Shown here one piece after another: positions 4,681 through 13,797 of a DNA stretch of 16,211 nucleotides. Below the pieces are notes generated by a model that made no database searches, was not told the origin of the DNA, and worked only from the letters and a program-made list of their open reading frames with translations. Each line of letters begins with the position of its first letter. Position 1 is the first letter of the stretch. Source of the stretch: Aquificaceae bacterium (lineage in GTDB: Bacteria > Aquificota > Aquificia > Aquificales > Aquificaceae); the NCBI GenBank assembly GCA_037924335.1, contig JAXSMZ010000002.1:1-16211 (forward strand), in the 5' to 3' direction. Both the position numbers and the translations under genes were made by a program.

Positions 4681-5078
4681 AGACTTTCCAAGTACTCTTT
4701 AAGTATTATATAAGAAGCAAAACTGTCTTTCAACTCCTTCTTCTTTTTATAAGAAAGACCTTCAAGGAGTCTGTAAGCTTCCTCTGTAGTGAACCTCTCA
4801 TCCCAAAGAACGATCTCTACATTCTCCCTTAATCTTTCCTTTAACTTTTTTACAAAGCTCTCTACCTCCCTCGCTCTTTCTCCTACCTCTCCCCTCAAAG
4901 TGAGAGGAAGACCTACAACTACTATGGATATTGAGTAATCCTCTATAAGCTTTACTATCTCTTCTATAACATTCTCCCTGTTCTTTAAAACCCTAAGGGG
5001 AGAAGCTAGCTTTAAAGCAGTATCTCCAAGGGCAAGTCCTATCCTCTTTGCACCGTAATCGATGGAAAGAACCTTCAA
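4677..5078 (-). CDS. ruvX: YqgF/RuvX family nuclease (pre-16S rRNA maturation / Holliday junction resolvase-like)
   Basis: LSIDYGAKRIGLA, VVGLP and WDERFTT motifs. TTG start overlaps the upstream TGA. yqgF-mltG adjacency is common. Confidence 0.95.
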   Translation of the reverse strand: MKVLSIDYGAKRIGLALGDTALKLASPLRVLKNRENVIEEIVKLIEDYSISIVVVGLPLTLRGEVGERAREVESFVKKLKERLRENVEIVLWDERFTTEEAYRLLEGLSYKKKKELKDSFASYIILKEYLESL

Positions 5079-5260
5079 CCAGTCTTAAAACCTAACAACT
5101 TGTAAAGGGGGCAAAAACCTACAGCAGATGTGCCTATGAATATTATTCCTAATATACCAAGTATCCACCATGCACCACCCTTAGTAAAAGCAAGGTAAAG
5201 AAATATGATACCCAAAACTACCCTTACAGCCCTGTCCCACGTTGCCATATTTTTCTCCAT
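5075..5260 (-). CDS. DUF2892 (YgaP-like) small membrane protein
   Basis: MxxNM.xxDRxxR N-terminus, two hydrophobic helices and GFCPLY motif. Strong SD (AAGGAGGT) upstream. Confidence 0.9.
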   Translation of the reverse strand: MEKNMATWDRAVRVVLGIIFLYLAFTKGGAWWILGILGIIFIGTSAVGFCPLYKLLGFKTG

Positions 5261-5289: not shown

Positions 5290-5745
5290 CTACTTTTCTC
5301 CTTGGACCTTGCATCCACCCTCCATCCAACCTTCAGGAAAGTACCAGTTTTTAAGATTAACGTAGCCATGGGACATAAGCTTCTGCCCTAGCCTTGTCTT
5401 TTCTATAGGTAGTCCCTTCTCCAGCTGAAGAAGAGTACACCTATCTTCGTAGTACTCAACAAATACCCTCCCAAAATACTCTGATATAAGGGAGTACAGC
5501 TCATCTTCAAAAGGGCTTGAGAAAAACTCAGGGTCCACATTAAAGATCTCTACCCATTCCTTCCAATAGGGTTTCCTACCATAAAAAACCTTTAGAAACA
5601 AAAACTTTCTTCCGCATAGCTCAAGGGTTAAATTCTCTTCCTCTAAAAACCTACCCTTTTTTCTGTCAGTAAGTATAAGGGTTTTATCCTTTAAAGTTAT
5701 CCCCTTCTCAAGACGAAGCATAAAGCTTTTAAACCTCTCCCTCAT
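5290..5745 (-). CDS. DUF1122 family protein
   Basis: KVFYGRKPYWKEWVEIF, FVEYYED, TRLG and WYFPEGWMEG..KVQGEK match DUF1122 from recall. The ATG at 5745 (MRERFK, 151 aa, 17-nt overlap with the tgt 3' end) is more plausible than the track start at 5784. Confidence 0.8.
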   Translation of the reverse strand: MRERFKSFMLRLEKGITLKDKTLILTDRKKGRFLEEENLTLELCGRKFLFLKVFYGRKPYWKEWVEIFNVDPEFFSSPFEDELYSLISEYFGRVFVEYYEDRCTLLQLEKGLPIEKTRLGQKLMSHGYVNLKNWYFPEGWMEGGCKVQGEK

Positions 5746-6865
5746 AGGTATACTTATTAAGCCACTCTCTTTTGAAACTTTCAAAGCAGCCTTCTTCTAT
5801 GGAAATTCTTATACTCTTCATAAGGCTATGATAGAAGTGTAAATTGTGTATGGTACCAAGTATGTAGGCGGATATTTCATCCGATTGATATAGATGTCTC
5901 AGATAAGCCTTTGTAAAGTTTCTACATGTGTAGCAACTGCACCCTTCGTCCAAGGATGAAAAGTCCTTCTTATAAACCTCTTTCCTTATGTTGACCCTAC
6001 CAAAGGAAGTGAACAAAGTTCCAGTTCTTGCCATCCTCGTTGGTGCCACACAGTCAAACATATCTATCCCTCTTTCTACAGATTGAACTATATCCTCTGG
6101 CATACCAACCCCCATAAGATACCTAGGTCTTTTCCAAGGGAGATGTTCGCACACAAGCTCAGTTATATCGTACATTAAATCCTTTGGCTCTCCAACAGAA
6201 AGACCACCTATGGCGTATCCAAAGAGATCTCTCTCCACTGTTAAGAGTGCAGAATCCCTTCTTAGGTCATCAAAAAAAGCTCCCTGTACAATACCAAAGA
6301 GCTTCTGACCTTCTCCTCTCATCCTACTTATGCTTCTGTCAAGCCACCTTACTGTTCTCTCCATAGCAAGTTTGGCTCTGGCATACGTGGTTGGATACTC
6401 GACGCATTCATCCAAGGGCATAACAAAATCAGAACCAAAAACTCCCTGAAACTCTATGACTCTTTCGGGTGTAAAAAAGTGAACACTGCCGCTCAGATGA
6501 TCTCTGAACTCAACCCCATCCTCAAAAACTCTCACCATTGCCTTGTTTTTCTCCGACCTTCTACCAGATAAGGAAAAGACCTGATAACCACCACTATCTG
6601 TAAGTATAGGCTTGTCCCAACCTATGAACTTGTGAAGACCCCCAGCCTCCTTTACAACTTCAATCCCTGGTCTTAAGTAAAGGTGATAAGTGTTACCCAG
6701 AATAATCTGAGTCCCAACATCCTCAAGTAGTTTATGGATCATAGCCTTTACAGTTCCCTGAGTTCCAACTGGCATAAAGACAGGTGTTTCAATGGACCCA
6801 TGGGGTGTTTTTATCCTACCTCTCCTTGCCTTACCGCAGTGAGATATGACCTCAAAGGAGAACAT
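5729..6865 (-). CDS. tgt: tRNA-guanine(34) transglycosylase (queuosine pathway)
   Basis: TPVFMPVGT, ILGNTYHLYLRPG, TDSGGYQVFSL, GIVQG, GGLSVGE, PRYLMGVG, GIDMFDCV.PTR and Zn site CxCxxC..H. The true start is likely MFSFEV at 6865 (378 aa) rather than 6934. Confidence 0.97.
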   Translation of the reverse strand: MFSFEVISHCGKARRGRIKTPHGSIETPVFMPVGTQGTVKAMIHKLLEDVGTQIILGNTYHLYLRPGIEVVKEAGGLHKFIGWDKPILTDSGGYQVFSLSGRRSEKNKAMVRVFEDGVEFRDHLSGSVHFFTPERVIEFQGVFGSDFVMPLDECVEYPTTYARAKLAMERTVRWLDRSISRMRGEGQKLFGIVQGAFFDDLRRDSALLTVERDLFGYAIGGLSVGEPKDLMYDITELVCEHLPWKRPRYLMGVGMPEDIVQSVERGIDMFDCVAPTRMARTGTLFTSFGRVNIRKEVYKKDFSSLDEGCSCYTCRNFTKAYLRHLYQSDEISAYILGTIHNLHFYHSLMKSIRISIEEGCFESFKREWLNKYTYEGEV

Positions 6866-6872
6866 TGGATGT

Positions 6873-6878
6873 ATTTTA
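6873..6878 (-). promoter_or_regulatory. -10 element (TAAAAT) 7 nt before the tgt ATG; putative leaderless promoter
   Basis: Minus strand reads TAAAAT-acatcca-ATG. Confidence 0.55.
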
Positions 6879-6908
6879 AATCCTCTTTTGTTAATATAAT
6901 ATCTTACA

Positions 6909-7456
6909 AATTTCACATACAAATTTAAAAGCATTGGTGTACAAAGGCTATAAAAATTATGATAAAAATCATATAAATGTATAAAATTATTGAAAACAAA
7001 TAACAGAAGCTATGTATTTTGTTAATATAATCTAGTACTCTACATTCTTTGACTTTCAACATTTAAATACGAATTTCACACCCCAAAAAATTTCTTCGTA
7101 ATATCAAAGACTTATGACCCAAGAATTCCACATACAATTTCACATTTTTCACAGAGTAAAACCTCTAAAAAGGTACCCTGTACGTAAGTTATTGAAAATA
7201 CGAGCAAATTTAAGAGAGAATTTCACATATATGAAATGCTTGATACACAAAGGTTTATTTTGAATTTCACATCATGAATCGTAAGTTCTCAATTTTATTG
7301 AACATTTTTAAATCAAAAAAGTAACGTACTATTCGTAACTTACGTTAATGGGTGTGAAGATGTGAAGAGAGTTTCATAAGTTACGAAAAATGTTGAACAT
7401 TTTTGAACACACCTTTCACTACAGAATCAACAACTTTATGCATGGGGTGTGAAATT
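6909..7456. repeat. Dispersed family of AATTTCACA-type 9-mers
   Basis: Forward: AATTTCACA at 6909, 7072, 7136, 7219 and 7263; AATTCCACA at 7124; TTTTTCACA at 7145. Reverse: TGTGAAGAT at 7353, TGTGAAGAG at 7361, TGTGAAATT at 7448. Confidence 0.9.
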
Positions 7457-7491
7457 CTTTTTCAAAAATCACGCAATTTCAATAACTTACG
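7183..7491. repeat. Four CGTAAGTT boxes (two forward, two reverse)
   Basis: CGTAAGTT at 7183 and 7280; AACTTACG at 7337 and 7484. Confidence 0.9.
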
Positions 7492-7558
7492 AAACAGGGA
7501 CCCCTTTTGAAGACCACCCCTATTATTTTATATAATAAATATATAAATAGAAGAAATA

Positions 7559-7573
7559 TAATAATAATAATAA
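7559..7573 (+). repeat. (TAA)5 trinucleotide repeat within an AT-rich tract
   Basis: TAATAATAATAATAA at 7559-7573, followed by GAA TAG AAG. Confidence 0.95.
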
Positions 7574-7591
7574 GAATAGAAGACGGAGATA

Positions 7592-9923
<2,332 letters not shown>

Positions 9924-9939: not shown

Positions 9940-11071
9940 AAAACATGGCTTTCAGCCTCTCTATAAGCCTCAATACATCTTTTCTTATGGGACCTTCTTT
10001 AAAGGTATCCAGTAGGCTGTTGTACATATAACTTCTATCTTCATCGTCTAGCTCTTCAAAGTTAACTTTAAAGAGCAACTCTTTTGCCCGTTGATTTATC
10101 TCTTTTGGTACCTCTTTATTCCCAATACTGCACCATATTAGCGTCCATGCCCTAACTAATGCTATTGGATGGTATCCACCCCCACCTAAGTATATGCCAT
10201 CTCCAAACATATCTCTTACCATGTTAAAAACCTTCAAATAACATGCGTTGGAAAGTTCAAACTTGGAAAGGTAATCTTCACTCAAAGCATCCGTTCCCAA
10301 CTGCATTATGTACACTTGATGGTTGAAGATATCCTTGACTATATTTAATCCTTCTTCAAGAGCGTAGAGGAATTCGGTATCTTTTATGTTCTTTGGGAGT
10401 GGGATGTTCATGTTAAAGCCTTTCCCTTTCCCCTTTCCTATCTCTTCCATGTGTCCGCTTTTAAAAGGAAAAGCGTACTCTGGAGATTGGTGTATGGAAA
10501 ATACAAATACGCTGTCATCTTCGTAATAGTACTCTTGTATAGCATCACAGTGGTGAGCATCAATGTCTATGTAAAGTATTCTTTTAAAGCCCTTTCTCTT
10601 TAGATACTCTATAGCTATTGCTGGGTCGTTTAAAAAACAAAAGCCGTTAGCTCTGTTTGGATATGCATGGTGCATACCACCAGCTGGATTGAAAGCCAGG
10701 TACCCCTGCAGAAAAAGCTCAACAGCTTGCAACGAAGAACCAGAAGCGAGTAAAGAACCCTTCCACATGGCAGGAGATATAGGGTTTTCGTATCTTCCTA
10801 TTCCGTACTTTTCTAGAGAACCATTCTTTACGCACATGCACTCATCAGACTCCTTAAGAGCCTGTATGTATTCCTTTGTATGAAATAAAAGCAGGTCCAG
10901 TTCTGTTGCCTCCCTTCCCTCTACAAGCTCATCCTCCTCTATTAGCTCCATAGCCCTGAGAAACTCAACTAACAAGGATACTCTTGGAATCCTGAGGGGA
11001 TGGTTTGTTGGATACCTAAGCTCTTTATACTTTTTGCTGTGTATGAGCTTAGCCTTAATAAGATCCTGCAT
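9932..11071 (-). CDS. acuC: Zn-dependent histone-deacetylase-like protein (AcuC/HDLP family)
   Basis: HPLRIPR, GGMHHA, GFC, YIDIDAHH.D, QLGTD and GGGGY catalytic and metal motifs. Closely resembles A. aeolicus HDLP from recall. Confidence 0.93.
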   Translation of the reverse strand: MQDLIKAKLIHSKKYKELRYPTNHPLRIPRVSLLVEFLRAMELIEEDELVEGREATELDLLLFHTKEYIQALKESDECMCVKNGSLEKYGIGRYENPISPAMWKGSLLASGSSLQAVELFLQGYLAFNPAGGMHHAYPNRANGFCFLNDPAIAIEYLKRKGFKRILYIDIDAHHCDAIQEYYYEDDSVFVFSIHQSPEYAFPFKSGHMEEIGKGKGKGFNMNIPLPKNIKDTEFLYALEEGLNIVKDIFNHQVYIMQLGTDALSEDYLSKFELSNACYLKVFNMVRDMFGDGIYLGGGGYHPIALVRAWTLIWCSIGNKEVPKEINQRAKELLFKVNFEELDDEDRSYMYNSLLDTFKEGPIRKDVLRLIERLKAMFLL

Positions 11072-12335
11072 AGCTTTTTACAAGCTTGTGTATCTCCCTA
11101 TAGTTTATATCACCGGATAGAACATAACTCTTGTCCCTGTATTGGAATTTGGCAGAAAGAGTTATACAGAAGTCATCAGTAGCTTGCGATATGTATATAT
11201 CCGATATGTAAATGTTATTTTCCATAGCTTGCTTAAAGTATGCTCTATCAGACCTATCAGCTCCTTTTTTCCCTGTTTTTATAGGGTACTTTATCTTAGG
11301 ATTTATTATGTTGTTGGATATCTGCAGACCTTTATCGTTCATTATATAAAAAAGTTCAAAGTATGGGTATTCCTTGAAGAAATCGTACAATGTATATTCC
11401 CACAAGTCGCTTTCTTCTTTTGCCACTTTTTCAAGTATCCTTTTGAAATCTCTGACTATATGTTCCTTTATTCTGGATATTATATCCTTCGCTTGATACT
11501 CGCATGTTATTATGTACGGTTGAAGGTCGTGGACTATAAAAAAAGACCCATCAACACTCTTTACTCTCTCCTTTAGCTCTGATGTTATTTTAAAAAAGTC
11601 TTCAAAACTTTTTATACTATCAAGATTTATCATAAAACCTTTAACATATACAGGTTTTGCATCAGCATAAAGAAGGTAGAACTCCTTATGAAAATCCTCC
11701 ATTATGCTCCTTATTTTCTCCTTTGAAAGTCTTTCCTTTGTAAGGGCATAAACTTCTCCCTCATCTTTCACAAATGAGACATCTCCATGAATGTTATCCT
11801 TTATATCTTCGTAGAGTACTTTATAAAGACCCTCCTCTTTTACAGGTCCAAACTCATCCCTAAAGGCCTTTTTCCCTTTAAGAAAGAACATGTAAACATA
11901 GTAAGAATGACCTAAAAGGTTTCTAAGCTTTTGGAAGATAGGAACGCCTATCTCTATATGTGCTGATATGTAGTGAAGCAACACATGATAAAATAGCAAT
12001 CCAATATAAAAACCCTGTCTGTTTACAACGAGTATCGGGTCTTTGTATGTGTTGAAAAGGTCCAGAAGACCTATAAGGTTATCAGTACGTGTTTTGCAGG
12101 ATATTAGTTTTATTAAAGAATGTGTTATGTCTCCAACAAGAATATCTTTTCTGTTCAGTGCAAGCTTTATATGTCTCTTTTTTATTATCCCTATTGGTTT
12201 TTTTCCTCTGGTCACTACCAATATATCGTGTATGTCATGCTCTTGGAAGAGCTTAAAGGCCTCTTGCATGCTGAGCTCATAGTCTATGGTTGGAATGTAC
12301 GTAGATATCTGTGAAAGGTCTATCTCTCTGGTCAT
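11055..12335 (-). CDS. Soluble multidomain signalling protein: CBS pair + degenerate GGDEF-like segment + C-terminal PDC/Cache-like domain
   Basis: CBS-like N-terminus (LSMQEAFKLFQEHDIHDILVV..KPIGII; PILVVNRQGFYIGLL). C-terminal ELFYIMNDKGLQIS..GADRSDRAYFKQAM..YISDIYISQAT..CITLS is typical of PDC/dCache. No TM helix. Confidence 0.7.
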   Translation of the reverse strand: MTREIDLSQISTYIPTIDYELSMQEAFKLFQEHDIHDILVVTRGKKPIGIIKKRHIKLALNRKDILVGDITHSLIKLISCKTRTDNLIGLLDLFNTYKDPILVVNRQGFYIGLLFYHVLLHYISAHIEIGVPIFQKLRNLLGHSYYVYMFFLKGKKAFRDEFGPVKEEGLYKVLYEDIKDNIHGDVSFVKDEGEVYALTKERLSKEKIRSIMEDFHKEFYLLYADAKPVYVKGFMINLDSIKSFEDFFKITSELKERVKSVDGSFFIVHDLQPYIITCEYQAKDIISRIKEHIVRDFKRILEKVAKEESDLWEYTLYDFFKEYPYFELFYIMNDKGLQISNNIINPKIKYPIKTGKKGADRSDRAYFKQAMENNIYISDIYISQATDDFCITLSAKFQYRDKSYVLSGDINYREIHKLVKSYAGSY

Positions 12336-13599: not shown

Positions 13600-13797
13600 A
13601 TGACTATGAACAGAGCGTTAAGATTGACATCTGGTGTAGCCCTTATGATAGTTTTTCTTTTTGGGATAAAAGGTTCTGATGTTCATTGGTTTTGGAAAGC
13701 TTTCATAGTTTTTATGTCTCTAAATCAGATACAGTCTGCTTTTACAAACTGGTGCCCTGTTATGAGTCTATACAGAAGGTTAGGGATAAAAGAATGA
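13600..13797 (+). CDS. DUF2892 (YgaP-like) small membrane protein
   Basis: 65 aa with two hydrophobic helices and NQIQSAFTNWCP motif. Strong SD AAGGAGG. Confidence 0.88.
   Translation: MTMNRALRLTSGVALMIVFLFGIKGSDVHWFWKAFIVFMSLNQIQSAFTNWCPVMSLYRRLGIKE

Follow-up and report, generated by a model that had tools for sequence, protein, structure and literature searches.

Several bacterial origins of replication offer a comparison for the locus described here. In Escherichia coli, oriC is built from a DNA-unwinding element (DUE), a segment in which an IHF site lies between the boxes R1 and R5M, and left and right arrays of boxes (PMC10325909). In Bacillus subtilis, reversing the box adjacent to the DnaA-trios inactivates the origin; a distal box works in either direction, via a loop (PMC6669920). 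The trios themselves follow a rule under which at least three 3'-NAN-5' triplets are found past a GC tract (PMC8287927).

Nearer to hand is Aquifex aeolicus VF5, whose oriC is entered in DoriC as ORI97017010 and is itself a prediction (Tables S1 and S2 of PMC8287927). Origins in the Aquificae are, of course, hard to place, since the genomes of these organisms show next to no strand skew and their gene order has been shuffled.

The box read by DnaA also varies. That of the Epsilonproteobacteria has the core TTCAC, in which T is required at position 5 (PMC5043019), and that of Thermotoga maritima is a 12-mer, AAACCTACCACC, without a CACA core (PMC10225481). The base-reading residues of DnaA are R399, P423, D433, H434, T435, and H439 (10.1101/2020.07.08.193532, PMC5043019).

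Here, the window is the whole stretch of 16,211 nucleotides that was analysed from an Aquificaceae bacterium. Its sole large gap is a non-coding segment of 726 bp with ~28% GC (6866-7591). Comparison of sequences indicates that this gap is very probably the chromosomal replication origin (oriC), with DnaA boxes that read AATTTCACA in place of TTATCCACA. These boxes have probably changed jointly with the initiator DnaA. Standard origin-finding rules would miss the element. It would be an oriC of a known type with a variant box, not a new kind of system.

The Element and Its Boxes

The boxes and flanking genes are as follows.

5729-6865, minus strand: tgt, tRNA-guanine transglycosylase, left flank (TIGR00430, above cut-off)
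6866-7591, no strand: whole element, likely oriC
6909-6917, plus strand: box AATTTCACA, identical in all 11 aligned genomes
7072-7080, plus strand: box AATTTCACA
7124-7153, plus strand: three near-tandem boxes, AATTCCACA at 7124 (1 mismatch), AATTTCACA at 7136, and TTTTTCACA at 7145 (2 mismatches)
7219-7227, plus strand: box AATTTCACA
7263-7271, plus strand: box AATTTCACA, 44 bp past 7219
7353-7369, minus strand: two weak tandem boxes, ATCTTCACA at 7353 (2 mismatches) and CTCTTCACA at 7361 (3 mismatches)
7448-7456, minus strand: last box AATTTCACA, 63 bp ahead of the trios and facing away from them
7592-8662, plus strand: AI-2E family permease-like gene, right flank

All ten of the 9-mers listed in an earlier, sequence-only reading of the window were found at their positions and on their strands, and six of them are exactly AATTTCACA. 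Seven boxes point rightward and three leftward, forming two opposed blocks whose arrays point inward. When the gap is dinucleotide-shuffled 500 times, exact copies average 0.038 and never exceed two; no shuffle reached the six that are observed. The same reading proposed that a genome scan would find the densest cluster here, and it does: the 1.53-Mb, 39-contig assembly holds 15 exact copies, six of them in the gap, with at most one in any other 700 bp. One-mismatch boxes across the 16-kb window are unremarkable (nine, with 7.3 expected). The signal of the AATTTCACA boxes is their clustering.

The canonical pattern TTWTNCACA fits one of the ten boxes, that at 7145, just as had been reported, and the canonical count in the gap is no higher than in shuffles. 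Variant boxes occur in other lineages, and this poor fit lowers the case for "canonical," not that for "origin." The box had been described as keeping the CACA core and changing its 5' end. The core is indeed kept; the change is not confined to the 5' end, since position 5 has also gone from C to T. A further candidate box, TGATACACA at 7241, is probably not one, being unconserved and overlapping an IHF-like site (7233-7245). The weak sites at 7353 and 7361 are likely real, because their TGTGA cores are the same in all 11 aligned genomes.

The claim that the gap is the only large non-coding stretch was confirmed, since the two other gaps in the window (211 and 314 bp) contain open reading frames of 61 and 65 aa. 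These small frames, at 5075-5260 (minus strand) and 13600-13797 (plus strand), are membrane-protein-like with a similar C-terminal "CP" motif, and presumably resemble DUF2892 proteins. Two gene calls at the element were treated as spurious, one a frame at 7507-7758 and the other a 23-codon upstream extension of tgt; the relatives' alignments begin at the 378-aa start. Elsewhere in the window, 11055-12335 (minus strand) encodes a protein of 426 aa in which a CBS domain at the N terminus is combined with a weak match to Cache at the C terminus, an unusual pairing. The source genome, G000, also carries a repeat of at least ~30 bp that ends in TTATGTTAAA, in five copies (C2:113615, C4:2322, C16:681, C20:9573, and C23:8600); this is possibly the end of an insertion sequence.

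Conservation among Relatives

Of 61 genomes searched at the DNA level, 17 gave matches, among them all six from the same genus; several weak matches are due to chance. Eleven elements from three genera align from end to end, are collinear, and have invariant box cores. The genes that flank these aligned elements vary. At least five different gene pairs are found, and the neighbours are convergent in some genomes. The permease-like right neighbour recurs in G007, G018, and G015, and is not the neighbour in most other relatives. The use of tgt as a synteny anchor was dropped, as the box cluster adjoins it at only two of 30 loci (G000 and G006).

Pattern searches contributed three genomes of genus g12, together with the elements of G015 and G008. 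The element is found in 17 of the 19 genomes of one Aquificaceae clade, at one locus in each. This clade is composed of genera g1, g2, g3, g10, g12, and g6 on a tree of DnaA domain III, where g6 is a long branch; the two g6 genomes, G011 and G021, group with the clade and yielded no element. With the few patterns and stretches that were searched, no element was found in G011, G013, G014, G016, G021, G023, G025, G060, or most genomes of family f2. The prediction that the same cluster would recur in intergenic DNA of other Aquificaceae was borne out, whatever genes flank it.

When all GTDB species genomes were scanned for a module of two boxes, 40 loci were returned. Seventeen of these, every one a dense cluster, carry the titles Aquificaceae, Hydrogenobacter, Pampinifervens, or Aquificota; of the 23 others, 19 have three copies or fewer. 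Records titled Hydrogenobacter contain the element. One metagenome-assembled genome (MAG), G094, has two diverged elements (L171, L191) and a single dnaA, with one copy amid sequence that does not look like core genome. The second element could possibly be a contaminant contig or a second replicon. Another MAG, G063, is titled Acidobacteria and has an Aquificaceae-type element adjoining a bioB-like gene (L189/L226) as well as an Aquificaceae-like DnaA; it is probably mislabelled.

Comparison with Aquifex aeolicus and Hydrogenobacter thermophilus

Sister genera hold textbook boxes (TTATCCACA/TTWTCCACA) at corresponding positions, and the AATTTCACA-type and canonical elements share no similarity at the level of BLAST. 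In G020, an intergenic cluster of TTTTCCACA lies at 166.8-167.3 kb, and its end corresponds to the string and coordinates that Table S1 of PMC8287927 lists as the A. aeolicus VF5 origin. Related canonical clusters occur in nine further genomes from sister genera and families.

What is shared is an arrangement. The module of reversed box, IHF-like site, GC tract, and trios is present in G020 as well, at 60 bp. All 11 clade elements and all five canonical Aquificaceae elements have a reversed box 52-63 bp ahead of the trios, with an IHF-like site between box and trios in 10 of the 11 and four of the five; these counts rest on the 19 of 26 elements that the trio-calling script resolved.

The element resembles the A. 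aeolicus oriC in belonging to the same family, in being intergenic and away from dnaA, and in having two opposed blocks of boxes, with a reversed box ~60 bp ahead of the GC tract and trios, an IHF-like site between, and an AT-rich end. It differs in its boxes, which are TTTTCCACA/TTATCCACA in A. aeolicus and AATTTCACA here. A. aeolicus has a weak forward box 13 bp ahead of seven trios, whereas here none stands ahead of the three trios. The DnaA of A. aeolicus keeps R399, T436, and H439, and that encoded here does not. Two distal motifs, TGTTAATATAAT and ATGAT-N4-ATCAT, are found here and are missing from the A. aeolicus oriC.

For Hydrogenobacter thermophilus TK-6, the DoriC-based string tabulated in PMC8287927 maps, through a 16-base piece, into a reading frame of 322 aa in G005 (L084:1321-2289). 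That frame adjoins dnaA, and the AATTTCACA element of G005 lies at 959 kb, ~45% of the chromosome away. The TK-6 entry is probably misplaced, because it falls inside a reading frame, the element is elsewhere, and four complete clade genomes have no tandem canonical pair. Literature searches returned nothing relevant on the AATTTCACA box or on a Hydrogenobacter origin; newer DoriC entries may list the locus.

Position Relative to dnaA

The single dnaA lies on contig C1, outside the window, as the sequence-only reading had it. No box cluster adjoins it. A canonical cluster elsewhere or beside dnaA would oppose the origin reading, and none was found: TTWTNCACA occurs at most three times per 700 bp anywhere in the assembly, the tandem canonical pair is present in none of five genomes searched (four complete clade genomes and G061), and neither the source assembly nor the four complete clade genomes gave a second cluster. 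As the assembly is in 39 contigs, another cluster could, of course, sit in a gap.

The element was rightly described as lying away from dnaA; this is not special to the one genome, however, as the distance runs from 2 kb to half a chromosome among relatives. It is 2-42 kb in G001 (2.3 kb), G030 (~15 kb), G026, and G020; 20-35% of the chromosome in G017 and G008; and 45-50% in four of nine closed genomes (G005, G032, G015, and G012), from four different genera. Congeners of these last four keep the element and dnaA close, a pattern that was noted post hoc.

Other marks of chromosome organisation were at noise level or inconsistent. This holds for GC3/AT3 skew per contig and for the polarity of de novo 7- and 8-mers, including KOPS-like words (strand bias with mean z 0.0, sd 0.9). 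Among the parS matches listed, all have 2-3 mismatches, and in close relatives these are no more frequent than a reversed control. A dif-like pattern in five closed genomes matched at inconsistent distances from the element, and nothing dif-like was recognised near the single tyrosine recombinase.

The Predicted Unwinding End, IHF-like Sites, and Further Motifs

Beyond what the sequence-only reading listed, the element has IHF-like sites, an end composed of GC tract, trios, and AT-rich DNA, and two further conserved motifs. The site search used WATCAANNNNTTR, which we take to be the IHF consensus.

6889-6900, plus strand: TGTTAATATAAT motif, copy 1, missing where the left gene converges
6959-6972, no strand: palindrome ATGAT-N4-ATCAT, putative regulator site
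7020-7031, plus strand: TGTTAATATAAT motif, copy 2, with GTTAATATAAT invariant in 11 of 11
7102-7114, plus strand: exact match to WATCAANNNNTTR, between boxes 52 bp apart
7185-7197, minus strand: IHF-like site, 1 mismatch
7233-7245, minus strand: IHF-like site, 1 mismatch, overlapping the box match at 7241
7425-7437, plus strand: IHF-like site, 1 mismatch, with ATCAA invariant in 11 of 11
7477-7489, plus strand: IHF-like site, 1 mismatch, between the last box and the trios
7497-7520, no strand: GC-rich tract ahead of the trios, without a recognisable forward box
7520-7528, minus strand: DnaA-trio-like run of three trios, bottom strand 3'-GAT AAT AAA-5' (top CTA TTA TTT), by the rule of PMC8287927
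7521-7570, no strand: predicted DNA-unwinding element, the least stable 50-mer of the 1.53-Mb assembly

The 50-mer that begins at 7521 has a summed nearest-neighbour energy of -43.1 kcal/mol and ranks first in the assembly, with the next locus at -47.4; the ranking uses standard parameter values and leaves supercoiling out of the model. This rank and the layout common to the predicted A. aeolicus oriC are further support for the proposal of a chromosomal origin. The AT-rich end is also retained where the neighbouring gene converges upon it (G036, G024, and G026), and it is therefore not just a promoter. The three trios are the minimum under the rule; the 11 clade elements that were resolved have 3-7.

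In the source genome alone, the IHF matches are weak: 80 of 500 shuffles reach the one exact match, and nine of 500 reach the eight at one mismatch. Across 27 elements, exact matches number 47 in 17,883 bp inside and five in 65,352 bp of flanks, a comparison, in related genomes, of AT-rich non-coding with coding DNA. The genome encodes three proteins of the HU/IHF family, two of them nearest to the IHF alpha and beta models, both under the curated cut-offs.

As to the remaining motifs, the core of TGTTAATATAAT is invariant in 11 of 11 aligned genomes and has one further copy in the genome. The palindrome ATGAT-N4-ATCAT occurs at 15 sites in the genome, and is probably the site of a regulator, because 13 of these are intergenic. 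The sites often lie 40-110 bp upstream of cytochrome-, metal-, or redox-like genes. They are likely to form the regulon of a factor that, in several genera, would also bind the element at its distal end.

The Box Code and DnaA Domain IV

The sequence-only reading had suggested an inspection of the residues in DnaA domain IV that contact bases. These are altered. Aligned against E. coli DnaA (1J1V), the protein encoded here has K332 at R399, T356 at P423, W369 at T436, and Y372 at H439; the D-H-T sequence is intact.

With boxes gathered through a fixed T-Y-CACA core, the clade consensus is A1 77%, A2 69%, T3 86%, and T5 91% (162 boxes, 16 genomes). The canonical consensus is T1 70%, T2 89%, A3 62%, and C5 91% (135 boxes, 10 genomes). 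Of the 16 Aquificaceae genomes with AATTTCACA boxes, 15 have lysine at position 399 (G017 has arginine), and none of the 10 canonical genomes has it. All 16 clade genomes have S, W, or A at position 436, where seven of the 10 canonical ones have T. G008, which keeps R399 and T436, has intermediate boxes. Within the Aquificaceae, the change to K399 is a single event.

A second occurrence lies far away on the domain-III tree. In G061, a MAG titled Rickettsiales, 10 of 17 genomic copies of RAATTTCACA fall in one intergenic cluster (L170, C7:53359-53742), and DnaA has K399, S436, and Y439. G064 has a smaller AATTTCACA cluster (L306, C1 at ~178.5-178.8 kb) adjoining a similar gene, and a DnaA with K399, G436, and H439. 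The two are sisters within their own group, far from the Aquificaceae clade, on a tree with long branches here. Among 30 relatives, G064 included, six have TTATYCACA clusters together with R399 and T436; G075 is mixed and has R399; G092 has K399 and T436, and no cluster was found in it; and the remaining relatives are without a clear cluster. With no trios scored in either genome, the clusters of G061 and G064 have a weaker status as origins than the Aquificaceae element; they are a candidate for an independent origin of the AATTTCACA box.

Counting both groups, K399 is found in 17 of 18 AATTTCACA genomes (15 of 16 Aquificaceae and two of two from the Rickettsiales group), and arginine in 16 of 16 genomes with canonical boxes. 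No single residue accounts for the box. H439Y, T436S, and R399K were each rejected as a sole explanation, as each has a counter-example: G017 has R399 and yet perfect AATTTCACA boxes, G037 has S436 and Y439 and yet TTATCCACA boxes, and Mycobacterium tuberculosis has K399, Y439, and T436 with the box YWRTCCACA (PMC5043019). That box type may track the residues of domain IV is a suggestive result, based as it is on two events.

Other lineages show that a box change can accompany changes in DnaA domain IV, as in both the Epsilonproteobacteria and T. maritima. The Epsilonproteobacterial box is also similar in its T at position 5 and its loose 5' end. It differs in that the Epsilonproteobacteria keep R399, whereas the box here has AAT as a fixed 5' triplet and residue 399 is mostly lysine.

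In some recognition helices, D433 itself has been replaced (L146/L147 of G025 and G016, L148/L150 of G021 and G011, and L149 of G013); these read SHSSVNH, GHTWAVN, and NHSIVIY. No box cluster was found in these five genomes, and their lineages may use yet other boxes.

Alternative Readings of the Element

A cluster of DnaA boxes need not, of course, be an origin. A DnaA-regulatory locus of the datA/DARS type, where DnaA and IHF titrate, inactivate, or reactivate DnaA while replication starts elsewhere, would also be composed of DnaA boxes and IHF sites, as datA and DARS2 are (PMC10325909). It would need no forward box adjoining trios, and a place 45-50% of the chromosome from dnaA, as in four of nine closed genomes, would suit it. 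Such a locus requires a separate oriC, however, and the draft assembly and the four complete clade genomes gave no second cluster to serve as one. Further, at its end the element has trios and the DNA that melts most easily in the whole assembly, and in four other genomes it lies within 2-42 kb of dnaA. The regulatory reading is accordingly an improbable one.

Still less probable is an array for another protein, be it one with half-sites of the CRP/FNR or Rex type or a partition or nucleoid-organising factor, that serves to anchor the chromosome or to control the divergent promoters of tgt and the permease gene. Half-sites for CRP and Rex also read TCACA, and the ATGAT-N4-ATCAT palindrome in the gap does behave as a transcription-factor site. 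Such half-sites would be expected as pairs, and TGTGA-N4-7-TCACA palindromes number zero in 27 loci. The flanking genes change freely and converge in some genomes, sister genera hold TTATCCACA boxes at the same positions, and promoter-like sites are without clear enrichment (8 against 5.4 +/- 1.9); the same scan found no terminator in the gap. Least credible are an iteron origin that belongs to a plasmid or phage now integrated, a degenerate CRISPR array, and a structured RNA. Direct repeats beside an AT-rich tract do look like iterons, and the MAG G094 has two copies; the reading is largely refuted by the conservation, in 17 genomes, of one locus that housekeeping genes surround. The window has no Rep, integrase, or cas gene, and the 11-nt repeats of the gap are irregularly spaced. 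Rfam gave two chance matches far below the gathering score, and no tRNA was found.

A Possible Opening Mechanism

With the element read as oriC, its boxes would be DnaA sites because their positions match the TTWTCCACA clusters of sister genera and domain IV has matching changes. DnaA would bind the ten AATTTCACA-type boxes, and ATP-DnaA would oligomerise on the box blocks. IHF would bend the DNA between boxes, leading the AT-rich segment 7521-7570 to open, and the helicase would load on the opened strands.

The layout has points in common with E. coli oriC. The element has two opposed arrays, a match to the IHF consensus between boxes spaced at about five helical turns, and a predicted unwinding element at one end, and is unlinked from dnaA. 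It is unlike E. coli oriC in having a different box and no R1-like box at the unwinding element. The arrays of E. coli oriC point outward, and those here inward.

The predicted unwinding end is like the basal unwinding system (BUS) of B. subtilis incC (PMC6669920, PMC8287927), with a GC tract, trios led by 3'-GAT-5', and AT-rich DNA. The DnaA here also keeps equivalents of B. subtilis I190, K222, R202, and R264 (I162, K194, R174, and R236). The differences from the BUS are that the equivalent of R206 is Met, the element is outside the dnaA-dnaN gap, and no forward box, allowing up to two mismatches, lies within 16 bp of the trios. Of 17 clade elements, 11 were resolved: one (G015) has a forward box next to the trios, four have that box inverted, and six lack it. 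G009 has the inverted box together with canonical boxes. Several relatives thus have an inverted trio-adjacent box, an arrangement that is lethal in B. subtilis.

Since no forward box lies within 16 bp, DnaA might be delivered from the reversed box at 7448 over an IHF bend. On the simplest reading, a sharp bend at the IHF-like site 7477-7489 would bring the DnaA of that box to the trios. Folded back, box 7448 would come to lie ~2-14 bp ahead of the trios and would be turned to the productive direction. The fold-back geometry of box 7448 rests on the general geometry of IHF.

A broader, and tentative, proposal combines this with the box code. It may be, although the odds are against it, that the clade opens its origin without the trio-adjacent forward box that Bacillus cannot do without, through an IHF U-turn that swings a reversed box across 55-63 bp, and also that the AATTTCACA code arose at least twice, in the Aquificaceae and in the Rickettsiales-labelled lineage, each time with K399, which is a minor-groove position, and the loss of Thr436; this would give a two-residue rule for predicting boxes.

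Implications

Were this proposal true, the two-residue rule would predict origin boxes from the DnaA sequence in genomes without GC skew. The clade would also provide a natural test of whether the rule of a forward box next to the trios is universal. As a natural pair of initiator and box that stands near the crystallographic model, A. aeolicus DnaA, it bears on how domain IV reads positions 1-5. If the reading as oriC is confirmed, the place of the origin would be settled in Hydrogenobacter as well as in four related genera, among which is a cultured model autotroph.
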